The notes: generated from the sequence alone by a model not told the origin. DNA of 64,000 nucleotides from an uncultured Pseudomonadales bacterium (GCA_964637295.1 CAZWWE010000001.1:188312-252311); one strand, 5' to 3'; shown: positions 1 to 59,630, numbered from the stretch's first letter. Translations and numbers: made by a program.

Positions 1-3000
1 AATATATTTTTGGTCGACTAATTGACGCTTAGCTTGAACCAATTCTGCTTGCAAGGCTTTTTGCACATCTGGAGAAATGTTTTGTGCTTGCAATTTATTT
101 TGTAGCGAGTCGATTTGTCTACTTAAATCCAAAGCACTGCGATAAGCTTGTCGACTAGCCTTTGGTCTTAAAAGATCTGCTGCTTTCTGCCATAAAGAAC
201 GATTTTGATTAGAAAGATTGTCGGTAATTTTTTCCAAAGAGGCAATTTCCGTATCTAAGGCTGTCAAACGAGTCTGATTGTTTGGATCAACTGCACCATC
301 GTCATTGACGAGAGTTTGTTTTTCTTGTCTCAAGGCAGATAGCTTGCTTAAGCTGCTTTCTAAAATAGCCAAAGATGATAAGTTTTCTTCTGGGCTACTG
401 AACAAGCGAGAAGTTTGCTCGTTCTGAATGAGAGCAGTCATTTGTTCTTGAACCGTTTTTTCATTTGGAGCAAAACTCTCAACAAGAGCTTGTTTTTGAC
501 TGTCTATGGCCAAGAGATCATTTAATTTGCTCAAAGCTTGGTTGGCTTCAACCTGTGTCACCAAAGAGGCATTTAATTTTTGCAGTGATTCAATTTCATT
601 CAAGAGATTTGCTGACGTCTTCAGTTTTTGCACCAACTCTTGCCTTTGATTCTGGAGGCGACTAAGCTCAGTGTCAGATAAAAAAACACCTCTGTTCGTC
701 ACTTCCGCATCGATAGAGTCAATCTGTGCTCGCAGAGTGCCAATCTGCTTGATGTGATAATCAATCTCTGTTGCTTTACTGTTGAAGTAACTAGCTGATT
801 TTTTGTTGTTGGCGCTTGCTTCTTGTGCCAAAGCTCTAATTTCACCAACGATACTTCTCCCACGCGCCGCATATTCAGCTGGATCAACACTGGCGTCAGC
901 CAACTTATTTTGGATTTGCGCCTTCGGATCTAGCTTGACTATCTGCTCTTGCAAAGCTTGGCGTTGCGCAGTGAGTTCTTCCAAATGTCTTTGCTTAAAT
1001 AAATAAGATCTTGCTTTTGAGGCAGCCTTGTCACTTAAACCATTCAAGACAGCCAGTTGCCCATCTACTGCATCAATTTGTTTTTGCAGATCAGCAACTT
1101 GAAGGGCAGTTTTTTCAGCTGCCACAGTGGTTTTGTGAGCTTGATAATTTTTATAACTGCTGCTAATTTGCGCCACATTTTGACCAGCACTCAAAGCCAA
1201 GCCAATCCAGGCATTGACGCAATCTTGTTCAGAAAAAGCACCGCTGCTGCCATAACAGGCCTGCGCCACTTGTCGCACATCAACCGCTGCTCCAGCCGGT
1301 ACGTTCATGGCATCTAAAACAAAATCGATTTTATTGGTCAAAACAGTTGGCCCAAATAAACCAAAGCTATTACCGGCCACTCCAGAAGCAGCCACAAAAG
1401 CCCCTAAAGTACTAAATGCTCCTTCTTTAAAAGCAGCGTCACCAAACTTCTTGCTCGAAGCAAAAGCATTGTAAGCAGCTAAACCAGAATTAACTGTGTT
1501 ATAAGAATTTAAGCCAATGCCTCCTAATTGGCCAGTGCGCGTAAGCAATTGACCAGAATTAGCAAGTAAATTGGCAGTAGTAGCAGTCGTAGCTTTACCC
1601 GCCAAACTCGTCAACAAACCGCCGCCGCTAGTCAAAGCCGCCACCGCAGAGTTGGCCAGCATCAAGTTGCCTTGTTTATTAAGCGTATCAACTTGTAATT
1701 TTAAATCTGCTTCTAATTGCTTAATTTCTTCTGGGGCGGCACCGCTTTCTTGATAAGATTGCAAAATCGCATTTCTTCTCGAATCAATGTCAATTCTTTG
1801 CATTTCTAAAGCCTGAGCCTTCATGCCCGCCCCTTGATAGAGAGAAAAGGCGGAAGAAGCAAGGCCTAGGCCAACTGCTGGAGCGGCGCCAGCCAAAGTC
1901 AACAAAGGTAAAGTAGCAATCGCCACTGAAGGTGCTACTACTTTAGCTAATTTTTCATAATTTAATTCCTTGCTCGAACGTTGCACTTCACTGTCATTAT
2001 TAAAACTTGCGAAATCCTGAAATTTGATTTGATTTTCCGGCGTGGTCGCGATGTATCGATCATATAATTTTTGTGTGATTACATCTTGTTGAGTTACTTG
2101 ATAATCTTCAGTGACTTTTTGAGCTTCTGCCACTGGATCAAGGACTGCTAAATTTAAATTGGCCGATAAATCCGCATTGCGGAGCAATTGATTATTCATG
2201 TTGACGGTCGCTAAATAAGTACCAGCATAAACAGCGGCTTCTTTTACTGATTCAACTGCATTTTGGAAATCTTTGGCAGCATAATAACCAGGCTGAGCTG
2301 CCTGATAGTTATAATCCAGTAGTTTTTGACCCTGCGCATCTTTTGCGTGACTGGCTCCAAGCAAAGCAACGTTAGCAATGCTGGTATCAGCAGGCCCAGT
2401 GTAATTGTAATATTTACTTGTGGCGTAATTAGTAGCGATGTTTTGTGCCACGTCTACGTTAGCTAGTTGCGTACTCAACTGATTGAAGGTTAAGTTGATA
2501 GCCTGACCACTATTTAAACCCAAGTCTGCGATTGTAAATTCTCGATTAAATAAATCATCGTTCATCAAAGCATTGCCATAAGATAAGCCCCAAGTGTAAT
2601 TGGAAATAGCTGAACGATTGGCTGTGGCGTAAGAGAAAGCTTGCGAAGCATTAAAAATTTGACTGGCAGCCACAGCAGTCTGATATTCTTGCATTTTGGC
2701 AGTTTGATTGTCCACGGTCGCATCAAAGCTTTTGCTGACTGCCGAATTTGGTCCAGACAAGGCCAGGGCAAGACCATAGTTACTAGCTTGGGCGGTACCA
2801 AAATTTGCCAAAGCACTATCAAGGAGACTAGCGGTTTTATTTTTCTGACTGCTTTTCAGAATTTGATCTGAATACTGCAAGGCCATGTCGGGAATGTTGA
2901 CCCCTTGTCCCGCGTACATTTTGTCGAGCATTAAAGCCAAAGTGGTGGTTGCTTGCTTTGTATCGTTAAAATTTTCCCTTTGACAATCAGTGATTTGTAA

Positions 3001-4887
3001 ATCTTGGCACAACTTCGTCAATTCTTGACCAGCATCTTGGGAAAAATTGGCAATAGCCTGATCGAGACGTTTAGGAATTTCTACTTTTTGTCGATAAAAT
3101 TCTTCACCATATTGACCATAAATATTTTTCAGCAAAGCCCGCTCGTCACTTAAAATATTGGCCGAAGCAAGATCGGAGGATTGTTTATTTTGTACATAAT
3201 AATTATTTAAATAAGTGACGTCCTTAGTTTGTTCATAAAAAGTTAGGGCCAATTGTGGATTATATTTAGCAATTTCTTTTTGCAACTCAACACTAGTCAT
3301 GCGATAAGCTGGCTGCCTTTTTACATAAAATTGATAAAGTTTCTCTAAATCCGCTTTATCTTCTTTGCCATCACCAAATTGTTGCACCAATTGTTGCTCT
3401 TGGATCACAGTACTTCTCTGTGTTAACAAAGCCTCAGCAGCCTTTTGGGCTTCGGCCGGAGTGGTGTCGGGCATTTGCGCCAAAATTAAAGCAAGTAAGT
3501 CTTTGGCTACCAAGCGCTTGGCATCTTCGGTTTCGATCAGACCCGCATCTATCGCTGCTTTTCTGAGCTTATTGAGATCAGTGCTTGCACCAGAGGCATA
3601 GTCTTGATAAGCCTTATTTAAAGTGGCGATTTTGCTTGCTGCGGCTTGATCAATTTCTGATTGAGTCGCTTTTCGCTCACCTGAGCTTGCTTGGTCTTGC
3701 GTCGCTTGCTGCTGTGCAGTCTGTTTTTGTGCCGCGCTTTGCGCTAAAAATTGTTGACGGTCTTGCTTGAACTTATTGGCATCAATACCAAAAGCTCCCA
3801 AAATTCCATCTAAATTATTATATTTTAAGCTTGGATCATAACCAAAAATTTCTTTGAATTTATTACTCGCCACTTGTTCTAGGTTGGCATTTTCTGCTGC
3901 TCCAATTAAATTGCCATACATTTGAGAAATGGCTGTATTCACAGTAATTTTTGAAGCTGCGGCACTATTCAGCTGGTCTAAAACTTGATAATGAGCGGCT
4001 AAATCGGGATAATCAATAATTCTTTGATTAAAATCAAAAACAGCTTGTTCTTCTTGATTAAGTGCTTCACTTTGTGCCTTAGTCTGCAAAGCTTGATTTT
4101 CAAGCTCTGCTTTTTTTTGCAAAACTTCTGGACTGGTCAAGGCTGTTAATAAAGCTTGTGCTTTGAGTAATTTGGCATTGGCTGCTTGCGCATTGTATAA
4201 ATCACCAACTTTGAAATCTATTCCGTAAGTTGCTTTGTACAGTTTTTCTAAATCGGCAAGCTCACCGTTATTTTGATATTTTTCAACAGCCTGCTGCCAA
4301 TCGTCATATTTGACTTCAATTTTTTTAAGATGTGGATAACAATAATCGCCCTTACTATTATCACAATTACTACTACGATTGGGCATCACCAAGTAACCAT
4401 TGACCACTGAACCGAAGGCATAGCAATTATTGCCAATTCGAAAACTTTTGCCCCCACAGTTTTCGCCTAGTTTTTCTACACTGCCAGTTTGATTTTTGAT
4501 TGTTTCACTACCAAAGCTCAAGCTTTCATAGGTTTTTTTGGTTTCTAAATATGGATAATTATAACGACCAGAATTAACCACAATATAACCACCAGCCAAT
4601 TCATCACCAGGCATATAACAAAAATTATTCATCCAAACACCATTACAGGCACTTTGAGTCTGTGGTCTTTGTCCGGTGTATGAAGTTTGGAGAATTCCCT
4701 TTTTACTAACTGTGCTGGGACTGGGATTTGCAGGGTCGCAATAAGGCTGACCAGGTTGACAACCACTAGCTTGCTGCCGAATGTCTTGCTGGTTTTTCAA
4801 TAATATAAAACCTGTAGCCAATCCTCCTAGCAAAAAAAGCAAAATCAGGGCAGAAATAAAATAGTATTTTTTCTTGTACGACAACAT
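1..4887 (-). CDS. Giant secreted/membrane-anchored coiled-coil surface protein, at least 1629 aa. The N-terminus lies at 4887 and the C-terminus runs past the left edge of the window.
   Basis: I translated the minus strand by eye from the ATG at 4885-4887 and it stays open to position 1 (MLSYKKKYYFISALILLFLLGG...). A stop sits 3 codons upstream of that ATG. The supplied ORF track misses it because the ORF is truncated by the window. It has an N-terminal signal anchor and a Cys-rich module CNGVWMNNFCY. Long Q/A/L-rich coiled-coil stretches follow, with Gly/Ala-rich hydrophobic segments in the middle. Confidence 0.75.
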   Translation of the reverse strand, partial: MLSYKKKYYFISALILLFLLGGLATGFILLKNQQDIRQQASGCQPGQPYCDPANPSPSTVSKKGILQTSYTGQRPQTQSACNGVWMNNFCYMPGDELAGGYIVVNSGRYNYPYLETKKTYESLSFGSETIKNQTGSVEKLGENCGGKSFRIGNNCYAFGSVVNGYLVMPNRSSNCDNSKGDYCYPHLKKIEVKYDDWQQAVEKYQNNGELADLEKLYKATYGIDFKVGDLYNAQAANAKLLKAQALLTALTSPEVLQKKAELENQALQTKAQSEALNQEEQAVFDFNQRIIDYPDLAAHYQVLDQLNSAAASKITVNTAISQMYGNLIGAAENANLEQVASNKFKEIFGYDPSLKYNNLDGILGAFGIDANKFKQDRQQFLAQSAAQKQTAQQQATQDQASSGERKATQSEIDQAAASKIATLNKAYQDYASGASTDLNKLRKAAIDAGLIETEDAKRLVAKDLLALILAQMPDTTPAEAQKAAEALLTQRSTVIQEQQLVQQFGDGKEDKADLEKLYQFYVKRQPAYRMTSVELQKEIAKYNPQLALTFYEQTKDVTYLNNYYVQNKQSSDLASANILSDERALLKNIYGQYGEEFYRQKVEIPKRLDQAIANFSQDAGQELTKLCQDLQITDCQRENFNDTKQATTTLALMLDKMYAGQGVNIPDMALQYSDQILKSSQKNKTASLLDSALANFGTAQASNYGLALALSGPNSAVSKSFDATVDNQTAKMQEYQTAVAASQIFNASQAFSYATANRSAISNYTWGLSYGNALMNDDLFNREFTIADLGLNSGQAINLTFNQLSTQLANVDVAQNIATNYATSKYYNYTGPADTSIANVALLGASHAKDAQGQKLLDYNYQAAQPGYYAAKDFQNAVESVKEAAVYAGTYLATVNMNNQLLRNADLSANLNLAVLDPVAEAQKVTEDYQVTQQDVITQKLYDRYIATTPENQIKFQDFASFNNDSEVQRSSKELNYEKLAKVVAPSVAIATLPLLTLAGAAPAVGLGLASSAFSLYQGAGMKAQALEMQRIDIDSRRNAILQSYQESGAAPEEIKQLEADLKLQVDTLNKQGNLMLANSAVAALTSGGGLLTSLAGKATTATTANLLANSGQLLTRTGQLGGIGLNSYNTVNSGLAAYNAFASSKKFGDAAFKEGAFSTLGAFVAASGVAGNSFGLFGPTVLTNKIDFVLDAMNVPAGAAVDVRQVAQACYGSSGAFSEQDCVNAWIGLALSAGQNVAQISSSYKNYQAHKTTVAAEKTALQVADLQKQIDAVDGQLAVLNGLSDKAASKARSYLFKQRHLEELTAQRQALQEQIVKLDPKAQIQNKLADASVDPAEYAARGRSIVGEIRALAQEASANNKKSASYFNSKATEIDYHIKQIGTLRAQIDSIDAEVTNRGVFLSDTELSRLQNQRQELVQKLKTSANLLNEIESLQKLNASLVTQVEANQALSKLNDLLAIDSQKQALVESFAPNEKTVQEQMTALIQNEQTSRLFSSPEENLSSLAILESSLSKLSALRQEKQTLVNDDGAVDPNNQTRLTALDTEIASLEKITDNLSNQNRSLWQKAADLLRPKASRQAYRSALDLSRQIDSLQNKLQAQNISPDVQKALQAELVQAKRQLVDQKYI

Positions 4888-4907
4888 GCCACTTCAATCA
4901 ATATATT

Positions 4908-6719
4908 CTACAAAGGTTTTTTTGAAGCCATATTTTTGGCCAAAAAATAACTCCATAAGCCCGCCATCATAAAAAAGCTGCCCATTAAAATTAAGCTAAA
5001 AGTCGTGCCCACAGAACCAGCGCTGTATTGACCAGCACTGGTAGAAACAATGCTAGAGCCACTAGTTATCGTTGGCGTTGTTGTTGCGATGGGCATCACT
5101 GATGGAGTTGCAGTCAAAGTTGGAACATAAGGATTGCCAGAACCATAGGGTATACTAGCAGTCGGCACTGGCGTCGTTGTAGGTGAGGTTGTCTGAGCTA
5201 ATTGTCTTGGAGTGGCGCTCGGATCAACCGTAAAACTATAAGTTTTAGTCACTTCTTTACCAGTTACTGGATCAATATAAGTATAAGAGGCAGTGTGCTC
5301 TCCTGGTTCCAAATTTTTACCCAGATTGGCTACATCTAAAACAAGATTGCCGTCGGCGTCTGTTTGCATGGTTTCGTCAATTTGAGTATCGGAATGAATC
5401 ACAATTCTTACCATGGTGTTGGCTGGCAGAGTCGCTTTAATTTGTGGCTGGGTGGTGGTTAATACGGCTGGCGCTGAGGCTTGTTGCTGATCCAAGGTGT
5501 TAAGATCTAGCACTTCTGGCTTAAAAGTACTGCTATCTGCAGATGATAAATCACCCAATAAACCTTGTAGTGCACTATCTTGACCACTGGCACTGGCTTG
5601 GGCACTGGCTGCTGAAGTGGCGTTATTTTGCAAAGCCAATGCGGCTGCAGATGAATCAGATGAATCGCTGGCGGTTATCGTCTCTGCTAATAACTCCTCT
5701 TTGTTCAAATCTTCTAGTTCAGCACTGGCACTAGCATCAGTTGAAGCTAAATCAGCGTTTTGTCCCAAAATTAAATCTGCCACTGGTTGAGCGCTAGCAA
5801 TCGTCGTCTTGACACTACTTAATAAATTTGGCTCAATGCCTTGCACTTTAATTTCTAGCTGACTTTCGTCACTTAATTGAGCATAAGTGCTTTTGTCCAA
5901 ACTGAAAGCATTAGCTAAGGAGATGCCAAAACTGCCTGAAGCTTTAACTAAACTAGATAAAGTACCTAGTTGATCACCATAAACGTAAACAATCGCGCCT
6001 TCTGCCGGCTTACCATCAGCAAGCATCACATTACCATAAACGGTTTGATTGTTGGGTGGCGATTGGCTTTGCTTGGCGATCGTAGTAATTTTGTAAGCTT
6101 GGCCGTCATTATCAAAAGTACTAGAACCAGTGCCTAAGACATAATAATAATCTTTACCTGGCTCTAAACCGCGCACCGTCACGTGGTGCAGACGATAATC
6201 TTTAACTACGCCTGATAGCTGATCACGATCATCGCTGGCTTGCTTATTCAGTGTTTTTGCCTCTTCGCCATATTTGATAAAAGCTACTGTGCTTTCATCT
6301 GTATAAAAAGAAACTGTAAACGATTTGTCAGTCAAATTACTAAGGCGAATATTTTTAGGCGTAGTTTGTGGAGTTGCTCTGGGCGCAAAAACGCCAGTGC
6401 CTTGACCAAATAATAGAACACCAGAAATTAACGCGACAAATAAAATTAACAAGCCAAGAATGGTAGGAATTTGCTTTTTACCCGCCAATTTTGCAGATTT
6501 TTTCAATTTAACTTGGGTCGGATTTTCACTGAAATCTACAGCATCCATTTTGGGTGCCTCGCTAACAGTTGAAGAGGCAATGGGCTGCACAACTTGAGTA
6601 GCTGAGGCAGGCCTTGAGTCAGCATTGAGCGTCGACTTGTCCTCTTGAAGGATTTTTTGATCTAGCTTTAAATCAAGCACTTCTTGGTCAGTAGTAGAAT
6701 GATTAAGTTTTACCTGCAT
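4908..6719 (-). CDS. Surface protein carrying a purple-acid-phosphatase-N-like FN3 domain, a CarboxypepD_reg-like domain and an Ig-like domain. It has both an N-terminal TM and a C-terminal hydrophobic anchor.
   Basis: 603-aa ORF. The motifs RLHHVTVRGLEPGKDYYYVLG (FN3 / PAP-N-like) and YGNVMLADGKPAEGAIVYVYG (carboxypeptidase regulatory-like) are present. A TM lies near residue 90, and the C-terminus (LILMGSFFMMAGLWSYFLAKNMASKKPL) is hydrophobic with a basic tail. The gene ends 21 bp upstream of the giant gene. Confidence 0.6.
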   Translation of the reverse strand: MQVKLNHSTTDQEVLDLKLDQKILQEDKSTLNADSRPASATQVVQPIASSTVSEAPKMDAVDFSENPTQVKLKKSAKLAGKKQIPTILGLLILFVALISGVLLFGQGTGVFAPRATPQTTPKNIRLSNLTDKSFTVSFYTDESTVAFIKYGEEAKTLNKQASDDRDQLSGVVKDYRLHHVTVRGLEPGKDYYYVLGTGSSTFDNDGQAYKITTIAKQSQSPPNNQTVYGNVMLADGKPAEGAIVYVYGDQLGTLSSLVKASGSFGISLANAFSLDKSTYAQLSDESQLEIKVQGIEPNLLSSVKTTIASAQPVADLILGQNADLASTDASASAELEDLNKEELLAETITASDSSDSSAAALALQNNATSAASAQASASGQDSALQGLLGDLSSADSSTFKPEVLDLNTLDQQQASAPAVLTTTQPQIKATLPANTMVRIVIHSDTQIDETMQTDADGNLVLDVANLGKNLEPGEHTASYTYIDPVTGKEVTKTYSFTVDPSATPRQLAQTTSPTTTPVPTASIPYGSGNPYVPTLTATPSVMPIATTTPTITSGSSIVSTSAGQYSAGSVGTTFSLILMGSFFMMAGLWSYFLAKNMASKKPL

Positions 6720-6799
6720 AAAAATAAAAATGGCTCATATTAAATTTACATGATTAGCCAAGCAACAACAAGTATCAGACTAAGCTTTTTTGCATTTTC

Positions 6800-7279
6800 T
6801 TAGGGCATTTCGGACATAGTACTCGTACTACTTGCTTGATTATTGGTTTCATCACCTAATTCTTCAGTTATTGTGTCGCTTGTTACTTCAACCGCTGCCT
6901 CAGCTGTTGCCTCAGGGTTTGTTTCCACACTTGTTGTTTTTTCAGCCTCCTCCATTTCTTCTGGTTTTGTTATGTCAACTAAAATGCTTTCTTTAGTCAT
7001 TTCGTCTTGATCAAAAACAAAAATGGAAAAATCATTTAGTTCTTCTTGCGTAAAAGCTCGCTGTTGACTAATCTCTTCAAAAACTTTTGATTCTAATCTT
7101 GGCACAAAAGACTTAGCCAACTCTCTCAATTCAGGAGAGATGGAGCTAGTCTTACTAGTCGCAAAAATACTGACTAAAATCCATAAAATAATCAAAACCA
7201 AAAACAGCACTCCCAACCACAAGAGTTTTTTATTACGGCGAAGTTTACTTAGTTGACGCTGTAAGTCATTGTTTTTCAT
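6800..7279 (-). CDS. Single-pass membrane protein with an acidic C-terminus, hypothetical. It may be a component of the pilus or surface-assembly operon.
   Basis: 159-aa ORF with a basic N-terminus, one TM (LLWLGVLFLVLIILWILVSIF) and an acidic tail. Its start overlaps the upstream PilO-like gene by 4 nt. Confidence 0.5.
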   Translation of the reverse strand: MKNNDLQRQLSKLRRNKKLLWLGVLFLVLIILWILVSIFATSKTSSISPELRELAKSFVPRLESKVFEEISQQRAFTQEELNDFSIFVFDQDEMTKESILVDITKPEEMEEAEKTTSVETNPEATAEAAVEVTSDTITEELGDETNNQASSTSTMSEMP

Positions 7280-7902
7280 TTTTTTTCAGTTACTTGACTA
7301 TCATAATAAGGCAAATTAATGCGTATGACCGCTCCTAAATCTTTTTGATTGCGATTATTGGCCAAACTGAAATTAATTTGATCCACCAAAATCATTCTTC
7401 TAGAATTCATCAAGTCCTCAATAAATTGTCTAATCTGTAAATAATCACCAATTACACTCACGTTGAAAGTCAATATTTGACGCGTAGCCTGTGAAGCGCT
7501 AGCGGCAACTAATTCTTCTGGAACGGCCGAAATAGTTATCCCTTTAATCACCAGTTGATTATTTCCGGCAATTTTTTCCACAATCTTCAAACCAGTCATT
7601 AAGCTGGCGGTTTTAGGCATGGCCTCATCTAATAAATAAAACTGAGAACTGAATTGCTGGTATTGAGCTTGAGCAGTGTTGAGACTGGCAATTTTTTGCG
7701 CTAGCTGTTCATCTAATGCTCTTTTATCTTCAATTTCTTTGACCAAAAGAGACATGGTTTGCAAAGTCGGCTTAACTGCAAAAACGGCAAAAAAGACTAC
7801 GGCTAAAATAGAAAAAATCAGCTCTAGAGAAACCATTGCCACAGGATTTTTATAAAAATCTAGCAAAGCTTGCTGTAGCTGTTCTTGTTTACTTTTTGCC
7901 AT
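7276..7902 (-). CDS. pilO: PilO-like type IV pilus assembly protein
   Basis: 208 aa with one N-terminal TM followed by coiled-coil and alpha/beta periplasmic regions. It sits immediately downstream of the PilN-like gene with a 14-nt overlap, matching the usual pilN-pilO order. Confidence 0.5.
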   Translation of the reverse strand: MAKSKQEQLQQALLDFYKNPVAMVSLELIFSILAVVFFAVFAVKPTLQTMSLLVKEIEDKRALDEQLAQKIASLNTAQAQYQQFSSQFYLLDEAMPKTASLMTGLKIVEKIAGNNQLVIKGITISAVPEELVAASASQATRQILTFNVSVIGDYLQIRQFIEDLMNSRRMILVDQINFSLANNRNQKDLGAVIRINLPYYDSQVTEKK

Positions 7903-8461
7903 TGAATGCTACTTTCGCTCGCATGTCAAAATTAAAGCCCGGCGCTCTTTCGCCCCGAGATTCAATTTTATTAATACTAACCTCAGTAAAACGAGGATTT
8001 AATTGTAAATTATTGACTAAAACATTGAGAGCCTCCTGTGATAAAGCAGAACCAGTAAAACTAATTGCGTCTGGTTTAATTAACAAAGTTTCAAAAACCA
8101 CTTGATTGGGAATGTTTTCATTTAAAATTGGAAAAATCTCAGCCAAGTTTGCTTCTTGTTTGAATTGTTGATAATCTTCAATTTGTTTTTGCACAAAACG
8201 AAATCTTGTTTCTAAATCAGCATAAGACGCGATGACTCGTTCTTTTTGATTAATCGAAGAATTTAAATCAGTGACCATACGATCTAGGGTAAAGCGCGAA
8301 GCAAAACTCAAAATCACAATTAATTCTGTAAAAATCACAATATAGCGACCAATTGACAAGGCCCACTTCAAAAATCGCCCAAAAGTCGTTTCAAAAAATG
8401 GGTCTTGAGGAACAAGATTGACAGTAATATCCAATTTGCGATTGGCAGGCTTTTTTGGCAT
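7889..8461 (-). CDS. pilN: PilN-like type IV pilus assembly protein
   Basis: 190 aa. The short N-terminal cytoplasmic segment carries ITVNLVP, an INLLP-like PilM-binding motif. One TM (YIVIFTELIVILSFA) and a periplasmic coiled coil follow. Confidence 0.55.
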   Translation of the reverse strand: MPKKPANRKLDITVNLVPQDPFFETTFGRFLKWALSIGRYIVIFTELIVILSFASRFTLDRMVTDLNSSINQKERVIASYADLETRFRFVQKQIEDYQQFKQEANLAEIFPILNENIPNQVVFETLLIKPDAISFTGSALSQEALNVLVNNLQLNPRFTEVSINKIESRGERAPGFNFDMRAKVAFNGKK

Positions 8462-8514
8462 TCTCTATGTCAAGTTTCTCATATATTGAACGCTTTTTGA
8501 AGGCTGAGATCAAT

Positions 8515-10200
8515 CTAGACTTCTTTATTTTCAATTGAACTATCAAGCAAGACTTCTGAAGAATCTTCAATGGCTTCACGCCATTTGCCAAATTTTTGCA
8601 AAATATTGCGAATGTAAAATAATTCCTTAACATCAAATAAAACCGAAAAATAAACATAAACTAAGCTCGCCATGCTGGCAGTGGAAATCGTTAAAGCAAT
8701 CAGGTCAATGGTGCGGGAAGTATCAAACACCACTTCATCTAAAATTTTGAAAGGCAAATAAAGAAAAACTGCCATAAAAAAACTTGCTCCCAGCATTTTG
8801 CTTTGCGACCACCAAAATTCTTTACTATTAAAACAAGCAATTTTTCGATTAAGTAGAATTACAAACAAAATGAGTTCGACAAAGGCAGTGAGTGAGATTG
8901 CTAAAGCTAAACCCAGTACTCCCAAATTGAATTCATAAACTGCTAAATAAGCCGTTAATAAGTAAATCGCTACGGTGGCAATGGTAATCAAAAAAGGCGT
9001 CTTTGTATCTTTGAGAGCATGAAAAGCTCTGACCAAAAGTTGCACCATCGCCTGAGCAGTGATGGAGATCGCAATAATCGCCACTACTTTGCCCGTTAGA
9101 ACGGTGGTTTTCCAAGGAAAATTATAGGTACCAAAAATTAAACGAATAATGGGCACACGCAGAATCAATAACAAAACTGAGGCCGGCATCGCAAAAAATG
9201 CAATTTGGTTCAAAGATTGCAAAAGTAAGCGGTTAAATTTGGCTCGATTTTCCCCGGCTGACTCCTCTGATAAAAAAGACAAAGAAGCTTGAGAAATGGG
9301 CACTCCAAAAAAACGAATTGGTAAAGTCATCAAACGACTAGCTAATTTCAAGACCACAAAACTCAAGTCGCCAATAGTGGTAGCAAAAAATCCCATAGCT
9401 AAATTTTGAAACTCTGTCACTCCGACTGTGAGCAAACGTGGTGGCATCAGAGCAAATAGTTTTTTAACTGATGGAAATTTCAAATTAAAATCAAAGTTAA
9501 AGCGAAAACCCAACTTCCAAACTAAAGGCAATTGCACCAACATGTGTAAAAAAGCACCTAATAAAACTCCTAAACCAGCTGCATAAATGCCAAAATATTT
9601 AGCCAAGAAAATTGTCCCCAACATGATGCCGAGATTATAAAAAATAGGGGCTAAAGCTGGAGCGATAAAACGTTGATAAGCTTGTAAAATGCCAGTTAAA
9701 AAATTGGAGATGGCAAAAAATAATTGTGCAAAGAGCATTAGACGAGTTAATTTGACTGCAATCGCAATTTGCTCCAAAGAAAATTCTTTTCCTGTGCGCA
9801 AGCCGGTGATCGGTTCAGCAAAAATAAAAGCTAAAATCGACAAAATCAAAAAAACCAGCATTACGTAGTTCATGACAATAGCAGTAAAACGGAAAGCTTT
9901 GGCTTCATCTTGTTTTTTTAACTCACTAAAAAGAGGAATAAAGGAAGCCGCCAATGCCCCCATCACAATCAATTGAAAAATCATGTCTGGAATTTGAAAT
10001 GCCACTTGAAAGGCCTCATAGGCTTGTTGCGAAGCATTGCTGCTAAAAAATTGTTTAATCAGCACTCTTTCGCGCCATAGACCAAAAATTGAAGAAAAAA
10101 TATTTGCCAAAGTAATCACTAGAGCCGCAGAAAGAATAGAGTTCTGTTTTCTCTCTAACCATTTACCATTATTATTGAAGATTTTTGCCAAAGAAATCAC
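8515..10200 (-). CDS. murJ: Lipid II flippase MurJ (MviN family)
   Basis: 561-aa polytopic membrane protein with the MurJ/MviN pattern of about 14 TM segments and conserved Arg/Asp-containing loops. Confidence 0.8.
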   Translation of the reverse strand: MISLAKIFNNNGKWLERKQNSILSAALVITLANIFSSIFGLWRERVLIKQFFSSNASQQAYEAFQVAFQIPDMIFQLIVMGALAASFIPLFSELKKQDEAKAFRFTAIVMNYVMLVFLILSILAFIFAEPITGLRTGKEFSLEQIAIAVKLTRLMLFAQLFFAISNFLTGILQAYQRFIAPALAPIFYNLGIMLGTIFLAKYFGIYAAGLGVLLGAFLHMLVQLPLVWKLGFRFNFDFNLKFPSVKKLFALMPPRLLTVGVTEFQNLAMGFFATTIGDLSFVVLKLASRLMTLPIRFFGVPISQASLSFLSEESAGENRAKFNRLLLQSLNQIAFFAMPASVLLLILRVPIIRLIFGTYNFPWKTTVLTGKVVAIIAISITAQAMVQLLVRAFHALKDTKTPFLITIATVAIYLLTAYLAVYEFNLGVLGLALAISLTAFVELILFVILLNRKIACFNSKEFWWSQSKMLGASFFMAVFLYLPFKILDEVVFDTSRTIDLIALTISTASMASLVYVYFSVLFDVKELFYIRNILQKFGKWREAIEDSSEVLLDSSIENKEV

Positions 10201-10305: not shown

Positions 10306-10542
10306 ATGCCGATACTCAAAAACGCCAAAAAGGCTCTCCGAGCCAGTAAGAAAAAAACCATTATTAATGGCCAAATTAAAGCTAAATTGAAAACTGCACT
10401 GGATGATATGAAAAAAAATCCTCAAGCAGAAAAACTTAGCTTGGCTTTCAGCGCCTTGGATAAAAGTGTCAAAAAAAATATTTTACAAAAAAATAAAGCT
10501 GCTCGTCTTAAGTCTTCTTTAAGTAAATTGCTTAAAAAATAA
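10306..10542 (+). CDS. rpsT: 30S ribosomal protein S20
   Basis: 78 aa, basic and helical, with the N-terminal motif ...NAKKALRASKKK... that is characteristic of S20. Confidence 0.85.
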   Translation: MPILKNAKKALRASKKKTIINGQIKAKLKTALDDMKKNPQAEKLSLAFSALDKSVKKNILQKNKAARLKSSLSKLLKK

Positions 10543-14793: not shown

Positions 14794-15969
14794 TTAATCC
14801 TTCCTAGCCAAAAGCAGCCGCTTTGGACTAATAGCTTCGTCATTGTTTCCAAAGCTGCCAGCATTATCAAAAAAATACTCTTTCAAGGCGCCTCCATTTG
14901 GATCTATGACAGTGATTTTAGCGTTGGCGACATCAATATCTTTCACCACAACCCAATGTCCACCTCCACCAAGATTGCCAAAATTACCATTTAACATAAT
15001 TTGCCAGTTACCTTCTTTTTGATATTTTTTTAAATTGTCGATGAGGTCACTATAATTATTGTTTAAATTGGCCTGTCTTATCTCATCTTCTAGAACACCA
15101 TTGCCATTAACACCTGTTCTCGTTTCATAACCTAATTTTTTCAATGCTTCCGCATTTGCCTTCAAACTAGTACCATTGGCGGTAATTCCGTTGGTATTTC
15201 CGATATCATAAAGTCCTAAAACTTTATCTGGAGAAACACCTGTCAGATTTGCTACTGATGTTACGCCACAGCCAACATTGCCAAATTTAATATTTTCTTC
15301 TATGTATATATTTTTCCAACGATTGTCTAATTGGTTAAAAAAAATATCATTTGCGTATTTAGCCGTAGTGGAAACTATCGGCGTCGGAGAAGCACTTACA
15401 GATTTTTCTGTTTTTTGTACATCAGGTTTTGGAGTTTTTTTTGTAGTTTCTGCCGCCAAATAAGACTCAACTAGTTTAAGCGATTGCAAAGTTGGATATT
15501 TATAATTATTAATAGTATTTGGGGGCACCACGACATGAGTTCCTCCAGGCAAAACTTCCCAGTATAGATAGCAGGTATCATTAAGCCAATTGCCCTGTCC
15601 ATTGCAGCTACTTTTTGTTGTTGGTCTATTAGTAGTTGAAGTTGAAACAGTAGTTGGAGTCGGAGTTAAAGTCGAAGTCGGAATTAGAGTTGGGTTGGTG
15701 GTTGGAGTTGAGGTTGTGGTTGGAATTAGAGTTGGACTAGTAGTAATGGTTGAATAAGGTTCACTTTCAAAAGCTTGCTGTCGATTGTCTTGCGTTTGCT
15801 TACTAAGCAAAAAGCTAACAAAAAGACCGATCGCCAAGAAAAAAACAATAAACACATTAGCTAAATTTTTTATTTTCTTTTTTGGAAAAATAAAAGACGT
15901 CTTTAGATCATCATTAACTAAATAGTGGCGATATTTTTCTGGTAAGAAATCTCTAGGATTATTCATCAT
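14794..15969 (-). CDS. Membrane-anchored extracellular C39-like (papain-fold) cysteine peptidase with a Thr/Pro-rich stalk
   Basis: 391 aa. The N-terminus carries DFLPEKY, then a TM, then the juxtamembrane motif SKQTQDNRQQAF. A T/P-rich linker and the motif CNGQGNWLNDTCY follow. The C-terminal domain carries GNVGCGVTSVANL (C39-type Cys motif) and GGGHWVVV (C39-type His motif). Confidence 0.65.
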   Translation of the reverse strand: MMNNPRDFLPEKYRHYLVNDDLKTSFIFPKKKIKNLANVFIVFFLAIGLFVSFLLSKQTQDNRQQAFESEPYSTITTSPTLIPTTTSTPTTNPTLIPTSTLTPTPTTVSTSTTNRPTTKSSCNGQGNWLNDTCYLYWEVLPGGTHVVVPPNTINNYKYPTLQSLKLVESYLAAETTKKTPKPDVQKTEKSVSASPTPIVSTTAKYANDIFFNQLDNRWKNIYIEENIKFGNVGCGVTSVANLTGVSPDKVLGLYDIGNTNGITANGTSLKANAEALKKLGYETRTGVNGNGVLEDEIRQANLNNNYSDLIDNLKKYQKEGNWQIMLNGNFGNLGGGGHWVVVKDIDVANAKITVIDPNGGALKEYFFDNAGSFGNNDEAISPKRLLLARKD

Positions 15970-16085: not shown

Positions 16086-16202
16086 TTCTGGCCTCGACCT
16101 ATCTTCGCAGGGGGAGAACCCCCAACTATTGTCAGCGCTGAAGCGTTTCAAGACTCTGTTCGGGATGGGAAGAGTTGGGACCACCTCGCTCTAGAGACCA
16201 GA
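16086..16202 (-). rRNA. rrf: 5S ribosomal RNA
   Basis: The minus-strand sequence ...GGTGGTCCCAACTCTTCCCATCCCGAACAGAG...GGGGTTCTCCCCCTGCGAAGATAGG... matches the conserved core of 5S rRNA. Confidence 0.85.
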
Positions 16203-16389
16203 ATAAAACGTTTTTACAAATTTGTGCCATCGTACGGTTTTGCACGAAACACAAATTATGTTAATTAGCGATTGTTCGCTAATAAGTGAAGCTAACTGCT
16301 TTATACCTGAGTATAAAAGTTAGTAGTAAAAGATAAATCTTTCACTACTAACCTACTCAATAAGACTTTTCAAAAAACTGATAGATATT

Positions 16390-19300
<2,911 letters not shown>

Positions 19301-19551
19301 ATTTACAAAATATCGAATTTGTTTACACAAATTCTTGTATCATTGAAATGTTCTCTTACTCAGTCATATTGAGTAACAGTTAGTTTTTAACTTAAATAAA
19401 ATTTAAATCAAAAATTTTCTTCACTTATTAAAGAACAAATTTGACGCATTTGCGCCAAACACTAGCTCTTTGCTAGTTATTAGTCTCTAGAAATTTCTAG
19501 TTTAGAAAAATCCAAAGTCTAATAAGCAGCAAATAGTCTATTTTAATTTGC

Positions 19552-19628
19552 TGGTGGACCCTAAGGGGCTCGAACCCTTGGCCTCCACATTGCAAATGTG
19601 GCGCTCTAGCCAACTGAGCTAAGGGCCC
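19552..19628 (-). tRNA. tRNA-Ala (anticodon UGC), with CCA encoded
   Basis: It folds into a cloverleaf with anticodon loop UUUGCAA and the G3:U70 identity pair. It lies just upstream of the 23S gene, as in a typical rRNA operon spacer. Confidence 0.9.
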
Positions 19629-20013: not shown

Positions 20014-22362
20014 TTACAACAACTTCGCTCTTTGATTGATTTCCAATTCCACCAACTCTTTGTCCTTACCATATTTAAGACGAGAAAGTTGTTTGATCAT
20101 TTCAGCTAACTTGGGGTTCATGCGCGCTTCTTGTGCCTTAATATCCTTATAAAGTGACATCGAAAAAGCAGGGACTGGTTCGTTATCAACAATCGTTTTG
20201 ATGTAAGCATGATATTTTTCCACATTGGCCAAATCATTCTCATTAAAAGTTGGCGCAAATTCATGCTGCAAGAAATTAGCATCAGTTACACCCACGCGGA
20301 AAGACACCATCGTACCAACGTTGCCAAAAACAGCGTTTTTGATTTCCTCATCAATTTGACCGATAAACTGGTTGGCCACAATTAAATTGAGACGATATTT
20401 ACGAGCTTCAGACAAAATGGCAGCGAAATCCTCAGTGGCAAAATTTTGAAACTCGTCAACATATAAGAAAAAATCTGGACGTTGATCCATAGGTACATTC
20501 TGACGACTCATGGCGGCAGTTAAAATTTTTGGCACCAAGATCAAGCCTAAAAACTTAGCATCTTCTTCACCCAAAATACCTTTAGACAAATTGCATAAAA
20601 CAATTTTCTTTTCATCCATCGCTTTACGAAAATCAAAAGCACTGGTTGGCTGGCCAATGATATTGCGCATAGTTTTATTGGTCACAAAACGTCCAAACTT
20701 AGACACAATGTAGTCCATCACCTCAGACTTATGGAAATCAGAGGTATTGGCAATCTGATCAGTCCAATAACGCTTGACCATGCCGTCTTTGACCAAAGGC
20801 AAATATTCTTCCACAAACTTCGCATCGGTCAAAATACGCACCATTTCAATAAAAGTACTGCCAGGCTTACACATGATGGTCAACATGGCATTACGAATGG
20901 CGTGCTCAAAACGCGGACCAACAATACCAGTGTGATGGGGATCATAAAGCTTATACATCAAACCAATAATCGAGCTCGCTACAAAATGCATTTGTTCTTC
21001 TGTTTCCGCTTCCATAATATTCATGCCCATGGGTCGCTCTAAATCAGAAGGGTTGAAATAAATCACGTCCTCAGCTCTCTCGGGAGGCATGAGCTGCAGT
21101 ACGTCTTCCACTAAATCACCATGCGGATCAATCACCGCTACTCCATGTCCAGCCTCAATGTCTTGCAAGACCATATCTTTCAAAAATTCAGATTTACCAG
21201 TACCCGTTTTACCAATGATATAAGTGTGACGACGACGATCATTTAGACCCACATAAATATCTCTTTCTTCTCCCCGATAAATCGATTTGCCCATAAATAA
21301 ACCTTCTGTCGGAATTTTATTTGGAGCTGGAGCATTTTTGGCGGTCAAGGTTCGAATATGATGAGTTTCAACAGTTTTATTGGGAAAATGCATGATCGTT
21401 GCCAACTCTTCCGTATTGAGAATGATTGTATTTCTATGAAACATGGGCATGTAACGATAAATAAAATCAACCATAAAAAGGTGTTTAAATAAGAAAAAGG
21501 CAGGCTTTTTAAAGTGATTGTAGGTGGAAGAAAATTGAGAAAAAGCACCCACTATATTATTTAAATTTGACTGAGCCGTAGTAGCGCTGTTTGCTGAAAC
21601 CACCACTCTTATAGAAACTCTAAATCCAGACTTACCCACCTTATTATTGATGGCTTCAATTTCTTTTGGATCGTGAGTGTAATTTGCCTTATCTGGATCA
21701 GCCTCACGTTTTTTTTCTTTTTGATTATGGCTCAAACCTTTGTTTTGCCAGCGATTACCCTCTGGATGCATCAAAATTTGTAAAGTGGCTCCTTCGCCAT
21801 CGCCCATTTTTGACATGGCAGAAGTAATCAGAGACAATCCATCTGTAGGTAAATCTTTGTAAGTTTTAATCGGATAAAAATCAGCTTTATCTAAAACTAC
21901 TGAGGTAAAAGCAACTCGACCTTGCTCATTAAAAATATTTACCTCATCCATTTCGCTGATGGAAGCTGAAGGATAAGCGCCATTAATTTGTTTTTCGACA
22001 AAATCTCGAATTGATTTATGACAGGTTACATAAAAAGCAATGTCTTCTTTCATGCCGACAATTTCAAAACTTAGAGTGTCTTCTGGTTTCAGAAAAGATA
22101 GTAAGCCATCTTTTTTAAGCGAATAAAGACCGGCGAACATTTGCTCGGCAGCATCAATTTTAATTTCATTATTTTTGGGCAATTTTACTAATAAAGTTAC
22201 AAAATTAAGTACGTAGTTTTCACGGCGCTGATTTTTAATTAGAGAAGCAATTAAAAAAATCATCAAAACCAATAAAACTAAGAGGCTAATAAAAACAAAA
22301 GCAGTAATAAAAAAACTATTTAATTGAGCTAATAAGTTTTGAGTTTGCTCATTCATGATCAA
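20014..22362 (-). CDS. Membrane-anchored P-loop NTPase of the VirD4/TraG (T4SS coupling protein) or FtsK-HerA superfamily
   Basis: 782 aa with an N-terminal TM. Walker A is YIIGKTGTGKSEF, followed by VAVIDPHGDL, and Walker B is FFLYVDEFQNF. Confidence 0.5.
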   Translation of the reverse strand: MIMNEQTQNLLAQLNSFFITAFVFISLLVLLVLMIFLIASLIKNQRRENYVLNFVTLLVKLPKNNEIKIDAAEQMFAGLYSLKKDGLLSFLKPEDTLSFEIVGMKEDIAFYVTCHKSIRDFVEKQINGAYPSASISEMDEVNIFNEQGRVAFTSVVLDKADFYPIKTYKDLPTDGLSLITSAMSKMGDGEGATLQILMHPEGNRWQNKGLSHNQKEKKREADPDKANYTHDPKEIEAINNKVGKSGFRVSIRVVVSANSATTAQSNLNNIVGAFSQFSSTYNHFKKPAFFLFKHLFMVDFIYRYMPMFHRNTIILNTEELATIMHFPNKTVETHHIRTLTAKNAPAPNKIPTEGLFMGKSIYRGEERDIYVGLNDRRRHTYIIGKTGTGKSEFLKDMVLQDIEAGHGVAVIDPHGDLVEDVLQLMPPERAEDVIYFNPSDLERPMGMNIMEAETEEQMHFVASSIIGLMYKLYDPHHTGIVGPRFEHAIRNAMLTIMCKPGSTFIEMVRILTDAKFVEEYLPLVKDGMVKRYWTDQIANTSDFHKSEVMDYIVSKFGRFVTNKTMRNIIGQPTSAFDFRKAMDEKKIVLCNLSKGILGEEDAKFLGLILVPKILTAAMSRQNVPMDQRPDFFLYVDEFQNFATEDFAAILSEARKYRLNLIVANQFIGQIDEEIKNAVFGNVGTMVSFRVGVTDANFLQHEFAPTFNENDLANVEKYHAYIKTIVDNEPVPAFSMSLYKDIKAQEARMNPKLAEMIKQLSRLKYGKDKELVELEINQRAKLL

Positions 22363-49639: not shown

Positions 49640-50092
49640 ATGTATAAACCCAAAGATTTTTTGCCAGCCAAATATGGATCTAAAGCTACTACTAAGCCTA
49701 TGGTCTCTTCCCCTTGGAATGATTTAGCTAAAACTCCTAAAATTCCAGATTACGAGAGACCAGCTGAGATGAGTCCTGATCATAAACTCACTGAGCTAAA
49801 GGCCATCGATCAACAAAATCAACAAACAAAAACAACTCCAAGTGCTGAAGCTGTGACTTCCAAAGCTTCATTGGGTAAAAAGCCCACGCTGATAAATCAG
49901 AAACTCGCCGGCTTACTAATGGTTTTCTTTTTAGTCATTGGAGTTTTTGCTAGCTACATGTTGAGCAAACAGAATCAAGATCTGAGACAAAAAGCATATG
50001 TGCCCGACGAACCAAGCGATCCTTATCCTGAAGGAGAAATTTGTACTAACCCAGATGGATGCGTAATTGGGTGGGAAATTGTTGAAAAATAA
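49640..50092 (+). CDS. Short membrane protein consisting essentially of the conserved N-terminal anchor module
   Basis: 150 aa: MYKPKDFLPAKY..., a TM (LMVFFLVIGVFASYML), the motif SKQNQDLRQKAY, then CTNPDGCVIGW. It is homologous to the N-terminus of the C39-like peptidase (14794..15969). Confidence 0.45.
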   Translation: MYKPKDFLPAKYGSKATTKPMVSSPWNDLAKTPKIPDYERPAEMSPDHKLTELKAIDQQNQQTKTTPSAEAVTSKASLGKKPTLINQKLAGLLMVFFLVIGVFASYMLSKQNQDLRQKAYVPDEPSDPYPEGEICTNPDGCVIGWEIVEK

Positions 50093-50106
50093 AATATTTA
50101 AAACAA

Positions 50107-53403: not shown

Positions 53404-53477
53404 GCGTGTGTAGCTCAATTGGTTAGAGCTCCAAGCTTATACCTTGGCGGTTCTAGGTTCGAGTCCTAGCACACGCA
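53404..53477 (+). tRNA. tRNA-Ile with a genomic UAU anticodon
   Basis: It folds into a cloverleaf with acceptor GCGTGTG / CACACGC, D arm GCTC..GAGC, anticodon stem CCAAG / CTTGG, loop CTTATAC (giving anticodon TAT) and T arm CTAGG-TTCGAGT-CCTAG. Confidence 0.8.
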
Positions 53478-53511
53478 CTTAAATAACCCATTTTTCTGCT
53501 AAAATGGAAGC

Positions 53512-54946: not shown

Positions 54947-54968
54947 AAAATTTCCTTTTTATTTTTAG

Positions 54969-56899: not shown

Positions 56900-56916
56900 A
56901 ATTCCTTTTTCAATAT

Positions 56917-59626: not shown

Positions 59627-59630
59627 GTAA

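Follow-up and report, generated by a model that had tools for sequence, protein, structure and literature searches.

A PilN/PilO pair is encoded in the window (the whole 64-kb stretch of DNA that was analysed) in an operon with membrane-anchored surface proteins, and this arrangement is standard throughout the class Microgenomatia, not an oddity of one genome. On the minus strand, murJ is followed by pilN, pilO, a gene for a 159-aa single-pass protein (sTM), a gene for a doubly anchored FN3/Ig protein (FN3), and the start of a giant gene. A sequence-only reading had proposed this layout, and the order, strand, and positions of the five genes and of the giant's start are all confirmed:

10306..10542, plus strand: rpsT (ribosomal protein S20; PF01649)
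8515..10200, minus strand: murJ, lipid II flippase, 561 aa (PF03023 and TIGR01695)
7889..8461, minus strand: pilN-like gene, 190 aa (PF05137, AlphaFold model, Foldseek)
8393..8428, minus strand: PilN residues 12-23, ITVNLVPQDPFF, with the INLLP-type motif
7276..7902, minus strand: pilO-like gene, 208 aa (PF04350, profile match to solved PilO)
6800..7279, minus strand: sTM gene, 159 aa, single-pass, no known family
4908..6719, minus strand: FN3/Ig surface protein gene, 603 aa, one TM helix at either end
1..4887, minus strand: 5' part of the giant gene, 1,629 codons, leaving the window
4765..4875, minus strand: the giant's N-terminal anchor, residues 5-41 (a glycine-rich TM helix, preceded by basic residues and followed by KNQQDIRQQAS)
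14794..15969, minus strand: second anchor-class gene, 391 aa (TM plus SKQTQDNRQQA)

The pilN and pilO genes overlap by 14 nt (7889-7902) and pilO and sTM by 4 nt (7276-7279), and the three genes are translationally coupled. Both overlaps had been read correctly, but the gap between the FN3 stop and the giant start is 20 nt (4888-4907), not 21 bp. The murJ-pilN and sTM-FN3 spacers in the window measure 53 nt and 80 nt.

It is murJ, and not pilM, that precedes pilN in the window. The earlier observation that pilM, pilP, pilQ, and pilin genes are missing between the operon genes extends to the whole 64-kb window, which contains no pilM, pilP, pilQ, pilB/C/T, or pilin. Motif and signal searches of 181 loci revealed no pilM, pilB/T, pilC, or pilin within 10 kb of the module.

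PilN and PilO belong to their assigned families

Both proteins passed the Pfam profile checks, as expected from their initial assignment: PilN matches PF05137 (E=1.3e-11, 44.8 bits versus a cut-off of 22.8) and PilO matches PF04350 (E=3.3e-7, 31 bits versus a cut-off of 22). The PilN family comprises 894 clusters at E<=1e-3, and PF05137 is carried by 120 of 120 PilN homologues among the matches listed; PF04350 is matched by 29 of 32 PilO orthologues. A PilO profile aligns over the full length with Myxococcus xanthus PilO (3jc8, E=6.8e-11) and also recovers PDB PilO 2rjz (E=4.6e-5). PilO additionally gives weak T2SSM_b and GspM matches, and three of the 32 orthologues match DivIC weakly, far under its cut-off.

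From its N-terminus, PilN comprises a short peptide in the cytoplasm, a TM helix in which FT(E/Q) is conserved, and a coiled coil, and it ends in a ferredoxin-like domain. The AlphaFold model (pLDDT 75) shows a helix spanning residues 26-115 and a beta-beta-alpha-beta-beta domain, and for the model Foldseek returned PulL/GspL, Thermus thermophilus PilN (4bhq), PilO, and EpsL with probability 1.0 and a TM-score on target of 0.5-0.77. The top matches of the C-terminal domain are PulL, XcpY, and EpsL. The TM/juxtamembrane segment, which carries the polar residue of FT(E/Q), is unusually conserved, more so than the periplasmic domain.

PilN carries an INLLP-type motif, ITVNLVP (residues 12-18), as had been noticed from the sequence; in the systems that have been studied, this motif binds PilM. 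Residues N15, L16, P18, D20, P21, and F22 are invariant among 20 orthologues (50-81% identity), and the canonical INLLP form is retained in PilN relatives at 27-35% identity. Because this PilM-binding-type motif is invariant, PilM is likely encoded elsewhere in the genome.

The operon core is conserved across Microgenomates

The order pilN-pilO-sTM-FN3 is conserved in ~160 loci from two large Microgenomates clades, and because of this strong conservation in relatives the operon core is not a chance juxtaposition. Two arrangements were found. Arrangement A (Pacebacteria-type; rpsT< murJ> pilN> pilO> sTM> FN3>) occurs in all 80 GTDB species loci with contigs reaching that far, and arrangement B (Woesebacteria-type; murJ< rpsT> pilN> pilO> sTM> FN3>) in virtually all of the 80 metagenome loci and also in L097, L099, and L101. 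An inversion of two genes, rpsT and murJ, explains the difference. One further locus, L098, has pilN-pilO-sTM with no FN3 gene after it and lacks murJ. Median gaps are 2 nt for pilN-pilO, -1 nt for pilO-sTM, 54 nt for murJ-pilN, and 120 nt for sTM-FN3.

The murJ gene (PF03023, 238 bits; TIGR01695, 268.4 bits versus an equivalog cut-off of 235.55) adjoins the module in ~160 loci, co-directional with pilN in the Pacebacteria-type clade only and divergent in arrangement B. Similarly, rpsT is a fixed synteny partner: in the window it diverges from the module, and in arrangement B it lies immediately upstream in the same direction. The murJ linkage thus looks like synteny rather than machine membership. 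The sequence-only reading had counted both murJ and the giant as operon members and had suggested gene-order co-occurrence in relatives as a check: the four-gene core held up in both clades, but the orientation of murJ did not, and the body of the giant is conserved in only ~10 of 80 species, all close relatives.

The third and fourth genes encode bitopic envelope proteins

The small acidic single-pass protein predicted after PilO is indeed 159 aa long with one TM helix, which bears an invariant W33 and is followed by a conserved ~50-aa segment and an acidic, disordered, variable tail. The Pfam search assigned it to no family. The gene follows pilO in nearly all loci and overlaps it in most species. 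As a candidate PilP, sTM was rejected: it has a TM anchor and a disordered tail and lacks a lipobox and a C-terminal beta-sandwich (HR) domain.

The 603-aa protein matches Pur_ac_phosph_N, an FN3-like domain, at 45.7 bits, and fn3 and Big_13 weakly. In its AlphaFold model, residues 85-105 and 570-598 form TM helices and three beta-sandwich domains lie at 120-320 and 400-505; Foldseek matched the model to generic FN3/Ig chains only. The FN3 domains and two TM anchors of the earlier description were retained, but this copy gave no CarboxypepD_reg match, although PF13620 is recorded for some of its orthologues. The orthologues are found together with PilN in the same genomes. A PilQ secretin identity was rejected, given that only Pur_ac_phosph_N, fn3, and Big_13 were found and no secretin/N0 domains.

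The C-termini of these proteins vary. In relatives, LPDAG or VPDSG precedes a TM helix and a basic tail, and the clade B proteins score 13.9 bits against TIGR01167, just under its cut-off of 15.9. The protein in the window has no LPXTG-type motif and no match in the NCBIfam search; it carries a degenerate QYSAGSVGTT followed by a helix and then by KNMASKKPL as its tail. FN3 and the genes after it all encode bitopic surface proteins.

A shared N-terminal anchor marks proteins encoded after the module

The giant gene, expected downstream of FN3, starts at 4887 and comprises 7,060 codons on a public contig with the same genes. Its homologues follow the FN3 gene in close relatives only (L013, L019-L024, and L028). 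The anchor is more widespread: in other species the same anchor is found on non-orthologous proteins encoded after the module, and the giant's anchor scores 62 bits against an HMM made from 34 anchors of its class. Proteins with this anchor (TM plus QDIRQQA) make up a class that is often found after the module. In the window, the 391-aa protein is a second example, which was recovered by an anchor motif scan and aligns with the giant across the anchor and first domain (BLASTP, E=1e-11); both share a cysteine-containing N-terminal domain, and the 391-aa protein has no Pfam family.

We ran an anchor HMM made from giant/gene5 anchors only against 8,466 ORFs. It matches 37 of 52 B-type FN3 N-termini at E<=1e-3 and none of the MurJ, PilN, or PilO TM helices. 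In the Woesebacteria-type clade, a glycine-rich TM anchor is thus common to FN3 and the proteins that follow it, and the genes downstream of FN3 begin 0-20 nt after it. A-type FN3 anchors are generally weak against this HMM (9 of 74 at E<=0.1), including the window's own copy (12.4 bits). An anchor-class gene follows FN3 in ~13 of 57 informative Pacebacteria-type loci.

We also considered the giant and the other anchor-class proteins as type IV pilins and rejected this, as the anchors have no conserved Gly-1 or Glu5. Neither the window nor any of the loci contains the pilin pattern G-[FM]-T-L-I-E. The only pilin likeness of the anchors is a hydrophobic helix followed by Q-x-x-R-x-x-A.

A proposed pilus PilNO pair with lineage-specific envelope partners

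Our preferred reading, held tentatively, is that the operon encodes PilN and PilO as the alignment proteins of the lineage's type IV pilus, apart from pilM, pilB, pilC, and the pilins, and that lineage-specific envelope partners dock to this pair. The Microgenomatia-wide operon pilN-pilO-sTM-FN3, to which many species add genes for other anchored surface proteins, would specify a membrane platform of PilN, PilO, and sTM as a third subunit. A PilM encoded elsewhere would clamp the PilN peptide and link PilNO to PilC and PilB. The FN3/Ig and anchor-class proteins (here the giant) may dock to the platform through their TM anchors and make up the part of that machine that spans the wall or is exposed at the surface; their genes occupy the place that pilP, pilQ, and minor pilins have in classical loci. 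murJ would adjoin by conserved synteny and lie outside the machine. Type IV pili are a general feature of CPR genomes (PMC6744442, PMC12206443), and the families PilM/N/O/B/C/T occur widely among CPR bacteria (PMC6744442). For the complete Microgenomates genome Ch65, a single type IV pilus locus has been described; it has PilM, with PilN/PilO not listed (PMC7143001), which fits a split but ordinary pilus machine.

Some observations count against this reading, among them the lack of pilM, pilB/T, pilC, and pilin genes in the window and within 10 kb in the 181 loci. The anchor-class part is not universal, given the ~13 of 57 Pacebacteria-type loci, and the weak A-type FN3 anchors, with 12.4 bits for the window's copy, also speak against it. 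The surface proteins show no pilin-type signal, and their LPXTG-like C-termini in relatives point to handling by sortase and not by a pilus machine.

A possible alternative, to which we give a minor share of our confidence, is an ordinary pilus locus that has been split, with distant pilM, pilB, and pilC, in which sTM, FN3, and the giant are unrelated sortase-type or surface proteins that are simply co-transcribed in a compact genome with few rearrangements. The neighbourhood (DUF5657, p212, lepA, rpsT, murJ) is frozen in synteny without an obvious functional link, so conserved order alone is weak evidence here; yet the four-gene order is kept across two deep clades despite the inverted rpsT-murJ pair. 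Unrelated neighbours would fit the larger sTM-FN3 spacer and the missing FN3 in L098, whereas the pilO/sTM overlap in most species and the packing of FN3, gene5, and gene6 0-20 nt apart in clade B argue against them. The generic Foldseek matches of the FN3 model and the LPXTG-like C-termini of relatives' FN3 and gene6, with sortase near ubiquitous in Microgenomates (PMC6744442), also suit this alternative, but the TM anchors are homologous rather than generic.

We consider it less likely that PilN-PilO-sTM has been recruited as a pilus-independent scaffold that assembles or anchors a surface layer of FN3/Ig and anchor-class proteins, including the giant, as the sequence-only reading proposed. 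The module is never beside any pilus gene in the 181 loci and always beside envelope genes (murJ, and often PBP, LCP, PMT, Wzy, or Bac_transf), the TM segment of PilN is better conserved than its periplasmic domain, and the putative clients share a TM anchor. PilM/N/O homologues in a non-pilus machine have a precedent in the Helicobacter flagellar cage (PMC10823254). However, a PilM-like partner is implied by the invariance of the PilM-binding-type motif, type IV pili are general in CPR genomes, the module would supply the only PilNO of the Ch65 machine, and no filament or layer is tied to the module proteins.

Very improbable is a cell-wall growth module in which the PilN/PilO-like pair would act with MurJ, as FtsB/FtsL-like bitopic coiled-coil scaffolds that couple lipid II export to wall-attached proteins: murJ is adjacent in ~160 loci, lipid II is the route of attachment for sortase substrates, and three PilO orthologues have DivIC matches, but in clade B murJ is encoded on the other strand, the L098 locus lacks it, both proteins pass the PilN/PilO thresholds and have the PilN/GspL fold, and the DivIC scores are far too low.

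Comparison with known systems

Among the closest known systems is the PilM-PilN-PilO(-PilP-PilQ) alignment subcomplex of type IVa pili (Pseudomonas aeruginosa, M. xanthus, and T. thermophilus), whose loci have the same adjacent, overlapping genes for PilN (PF05137) and PilO (PF04350), the same bitopic PilN with an INLLP-type N-terminal peptide, coiled coil, and ferredoxin-like C-terminal domain, and likewise a small and a large envelope gene after pilO (there pilP and pilQ, here sTM and FN3). Unlike in those loci, pilN has no pilM beside it and the nearest 10 kb are free of pilus genes, sTM has neither the lipobox nor the beta-sandwich domain of PilP, an FN3/Ig chain with two TM anchors stands in place of the PilQ secretin, and PilN has its unusually conserved TM segment with FT(E/Q).

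In monoderms and in Saccharibacteria TM7x, type IV pilus loci (PMC12206443, PMC6916266) also include PilN and PilO without an outer membrane or secretin. There, however, pilM-pilN-pilO are contiguous amid genes for the ATPase, platform, and pilins (pilB/pilC/pilD/pilins), whereas here pilN-pilO sit beside rpsT/murJ with surface-protein genes. GspL/GspM of type II secretion share the C-terminal domain fold and the weak T2SSM_b and GspM matches of PilO, but a fused cytoplasmic GspL domain, T2SS genes, and an outer membrane are absent here. The PilM/N/O cage of the Helicobacter/Campylobacter flagellar motor (PMC10823254, PMC11870540) is a precedent for a non-pilus machine encoded away from pilus genes; in it, PilM is kept with PilN and PilO and the partner is the flagellum, which Microgenomates lack.

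Gram-positive sortase-anchored LPXTG proteins resemble the surface proteins in their FN3/Ig-chain ectodomains and in the C-termini of relatives' FN3 and gene6, which end in LP(D/E)AG or VPDSG and a hydrophobic helix, with a basic tail in FN3 only. They differ in that the LPXTG model score is below threshold (13.9 versus 15.9 bits), the window protein has only QYSAGSVGTT, and the N-terminus here looks like a conserved uncleaved anchor instead of a plain signal peptide. These ultra-small CPR/Microgenomates bacteria have, as a class, their PilNO in a conserved operon away from other pilus genes, together with membrane-anchored surface proteins, one of them here a giant of 7,060 residues.

Locus layout and identity of PilN and PilO

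Six consecutive minus-strand genes in the window, murJ, pilN, pilO, sTM, FN3, and a gene for a giant protein, make up the row described in the sequence-only reading, and both our gene calls and the family assignments confirmed it.

Genes of the locus in the window
10306-10542, divergently upstream of the six-gene row, along with lepA: rpsT
8515-10200, minus: murJ, 561 aa
7889-8461, minus: PilN-like gene, 190 aa
7276-7902, minus: PilO-like gene, 208 aa
6800-7279, minus: sTM, single-pass protein, 159 aa
4908-6719, minus: FN3, FN3/Ig surface protein, 603 aa
from 4887, running off the window start, minus: giant gene, 7,060 residues on a public contig with identical genes

The junctions are 53 nt between murJ and pilN, a 14-nt overlap between pilN and pilO, a 4-nt overlap between pilO and sTM, 80 nt between sTM and FN3, and 20 nt between FN3 and the giant gene. 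A scan for promoters and terminators returned signal no better than in shuffled sequence. The closest named relatives place the organism among Pacebacteria-type CPR/Patescibacteria (Microgenomates).

MurJ scores above both the Pfam cut-off and the NCBIfam equivalog cut-off. The earlier PilN and PilO assignments held in HMM searches: PilN matches PF05137 with a score double the gathering threshold (E=1.3e-11), and PilO matches PF04350, as do 29 of 32 orthologues. The PilO profile aligns over its full length with M. xanthus PilO (E=6.8e-11). The PilN profile found a weak PilN match alone among PDB sequences (E=0.43), so a fold search was needed to settle the PilN fold. The AlphaFold model (pLDDT 75) comprises a disordered N-terminal peptide, one long transmembrane (TM) and coiled-coil helix, and a beta-beta-alpha-beta-beta domain, whose best structural matches in Foldseek are the periplasmic domains of PulL/GspL, Thermus PilN, PilO, and EpsL. 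Comparison of the PilN and PilO profiles with hhalign gave no significant match. With 894 clusters recovered at E<=1e-3 by an exhaustive HMMER search, PilN of this type forms a large family.

PilN residues 12-23 read ITVNLVPQDPFF, with six positions invariant in orthologues down to 50% identity, and the N-terminal motif is the canonical INLLP in relatives of ~30% identity. Residues 38-67, which form the TM and juxtamembrane stretch (GRYIVIFTE...SRFxLDRxxTDLN), are better conserved than the periplasmic domain. Within this stretch, FT(E/Q) places a polar or acidic residue inside the membrane helix, which is to our knowledge unusual for PilN and suggests an intramembrane partner.

Conservation of the operon

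We sampled the genomic contexts of exact or close PilN homologues, 80 GTDB species representatives, and 80 metagenome loci of more distant PilN relatives together with five long contigs, and annotated the loci with phmmer and HMMs made from the window's proteins. In this sample (records L017-L096 and the hit names), the Patescibacteria module often sits in public records labelled "uncultured Pseudomonadales", "TM6", "Lentimicrobiaceae", "Limisphaerales", "Vitreimonas", or "Bathyarchaeia", names that are probably erroneous.

The window's own Pacebacteria-type clade has the order DUF5657< p212< (SurA>) lepA< rpsT< / murJ> pilN> pilO> sTM> FN3>, which is kept in every locus with a contig long enough. 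The second, Woesebacteria-type clade has murJ< / rpsT> pilN> pilO> sTM> FN3> in essentially all loci, and inverting the two-gene segment rpsT-murJ converts one order into the other. Because the same four genes follow in both clades across this inversion, the conserved unit is pilN-pilO-sTM-FN3. Median gaps are 2 nt for pilN-pilO, -1 nt for pilO-sTM, 54 nt for murJ-pilN, and 120 nt for sTM-FN3.

The gene order of the earlier reading thus stands for these four genes in both clades but not for its two ends. MurJ is a fixed neighbour that is co-directional in the window's clade only, and being divergent in the Woesebacteria-type clade, it was rejected as a conserved co-transcribed partner. Homologues of the giant body come after FN3 in about ten close species only; elsewhere, this place is taken by a PBP/GH18 pair in convergent orientation, by a sugar transferase, or by other large ORFs that are non-orthologous. 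The giant was therefore rejected as a conserved operon member, since its recurrence is limited to its anchor class (proteins with the same type of N-terminal TM anchor).

One 811-kb metagenome contig (L098, 10001-14371) departs from this layout: pilN-pilO-sTM is succeeded by seven small PF18895 (T4SS_pilin) paralogues in place of an FN3 gene, a further two are found upstream, and the locus lacks murJ.

Pilus genes

Searches with P. aeruginosa PilM in phmmer, a Walker-A pattern for PilB/T, and a pattern for prepilins drew no hits in 181 loci or in the 64-kb window. No pilM, pilB/T, pilC, or pilin was found within 10 kb of the module in any of these loci or elsewhere in the window, in line with the earlier claim of no pilM, pilP, pilQ, or pilin among the genes of the operon. 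Indirect evidence suggests that pilM and the other pilus genes are encoded elsewhere in the genome, because the PilM-binding-type peptide of PilN is under strong purifying selection, because the PilM/N/O/B/C/T families are reported to be widespread in CPR bacteria (PMC6744442, PMC12206443), and because the single pilus locus of Ch65, a complete Microgenomates genome, is described with PilA, minor pilins, PilD, PilB, PilT, PilC, and PilM, a list in which PilN and PilO do not figure (PMC7143001).

Envelope proteins and a shared anchor

sTM matched no known family and was rejected as PilP since the PilP domain is absent. The FN3 protein carries an FN3-like Pur_ac_phosph_N domain; its model has a TM helix at each end and three confident beta-sandwich domains with disordered linkers between them, for which Foldseek returned generic FN3/Ig chains and nothing more specific. 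Neither the FN3 protein nor the giant had meaningful matches among PDB sequences, and with neither a secretin nor an N0 domain found, a secretin substitute by homology was rejected. At the C-terminus of Woesebacteria-type FN3 proteins, LPDAG or VPDSG precedes a TM helix and a basic tail, an arrangement scoring just below the LPXTG model cut-off; in the window's protein, the aligned position carries the degenerate QYSAGSVGTT. Sortase is reported to be near ubiquitous in Microgenomates (PMC6744442).

The N-terminus of the giant has basic residues, a glycine-rich TM helix, and then Q-(D/E)-x-R-(Q/E)-x-A, a signature that reads KKKYYFISALILLFLLGGLATGFILLKNQQDIRQQAS in the window and recurs in other proteins. 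In other Pacebacteria-type loci it marks the large, non-orthologous proteins encoded after FN3, and at window 14794-15969 it occurs, with the giant's first domain, on a 391-aa protein. In Woesebacteria-type loci, it is carried by the product of the gene starting 0-20 nt past FN3 (gene5, 400-560 aa), which in loci L097-L181 combines a cytoplasmic tail rich in Pro with an ectodomain rich in cysteine. Tightly packed with gene5 is the usual further gene of this clade (gene6, 130-210 aa), encoding a TM helix, then RLYQLRQQAVAPTAPE and a linker rich in Pro and Thr, and at the C-terminus LP(D/E)AG followed by a hydrophobic helix, an ending that resembles a sortase signal.

An HMM trained on 34 giant and gene5 anchors alone and searched against 8,466 ORFs picked up 37 of 52 Woesebacteria-type FN3 N-termini at E<=1e-3 and matched no MurJ, PilN, or PilO helices among these ORFs. 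Pacebacteria-type FN3 anchors match weakly (12.4 bits for the window's FN3). Anchor-class proteins have neither Gly-1 nor Glu5 and were rejected as canonical type IV pilins. Elsewhere in the window (49640-52326, plus), a 150-aa ORF with the signature (TM and SKQNQDLRQKA) ends in a stop, and a 739-aa ORF without a family begins 15 nt further on in a different frame; the two may represent one anchor-class gene that has been split or frameshifted.

Other features of the window

16086-19628, minus: tRNA-Ala(TGC), full-length 23S rRNA (16384-19312), and 5S rRNA (16086-16202), grouped
20014-22362, minus: 782-aa VirD4/TrwB-like coupling ATPase (TrwB_AAD_bind, TraG-D_C)
26587-49671: large surface-polysaccharide cluster with Bac_transf, two Wzy_C, DegT aminotransferase, several GT2/GT4/WecG transferases, methyltransferase, and ABC-2 exporter
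53404-53478, plus: tRNA-Ile, anticodon TAT
53948-60803, minus: mevalonate-pathway block with diphosphomevalonate decarboxylase, two GHMP kinases, thiolase, HMG-CoA synthase-like protein, and HMG-CoA reductase

No 16S gene occurs anywhere in the window, so the rRNA genes appear unlinked. Most bacteria decode AUA with a modified CAU tRNA instead of one with a TAT anticodon. No other type IV secretion genes were recognised beside the coupling ATPase. The stretches at 36-42 kb and 46-48 kb have a G+C content of 26-30%, compared with ~38% elsewhere, and this drop in the polysaccharide cluster suggests an island that is variable or acquired.

Interpretation

The best-supported reading, which we hold tentatively, is that the module is the class's normal encoding of the pilus alignment pair, co-operonic with lineage-specific envelope proteins. 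A distant PilM would clamp PilN-PilO and a third small subunit, the envelope proteins would occupy the positions held by pilP, pilQ, and minor pilins in classical loci, and these proteins would probably dock via the shared TM anchor.

Rather unlikely by comparison, the genes downstream of PilNO would be unrelated passengers. Ranking below this is the original proposal of a pilus-independent platform serving a surface structure, for which there is a precedent in Helicobacter, where PilM/N/O homologues build the flagellar cage (PMC10823254). In its class-wide form, which we likewise doubt, PilN-PilO-sTM would be a membrane platform across Microgenomatia, derived from type IV pili but independent of pilus assembly, that docks or delivers bitopic surface proteins via the glycine-rich TM anchor; its clients would include the FN3/Ig protein, the Pro/Thr-rich LPDAG proteins, and cysteine-rich proteins reaching 7,060 residues in this organism. 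Coupling of the PilN-PilO pair to MurJ in wall growth is highly improbable, as murJ is divergent in the Woesebacteria-type clade.

CPR/Patescibacteria live attached to other cells, a lifestyle attributed to their pili and surface proteins. Little is established on how a pilus machine spans an envelope that has neither outer membrane nor secretin. The class-wide operon joins PilN and PilO to fixed uncharacterised envelope proteins, plus giant surface proteins in some lineages, and this linkage singles out specific proteins that may be the missing components for wall spanning or host contact, with the shared anchor as a testable handle. PilN and PilO themselves are already known, and some NCBI/JGI records of relatives are already named PilN. 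In the literature searched, we found no description of a class-wide pilN-pilO-sTM-FN3 operon detached from pilM, of fixed rpsT/murJ synteny with a two-gene inversion, or of an anchor common to the FN3 protein, the gene5 class, and the giant. If a pilus-independent platform proved real, bacteria lacking an outer membrane would possess a surface-display or assembly system of a new kind, and the pair would then represent a second reuse of the alignment complex for another surface machine, after the epsilonproteobacterial flagellar cage.
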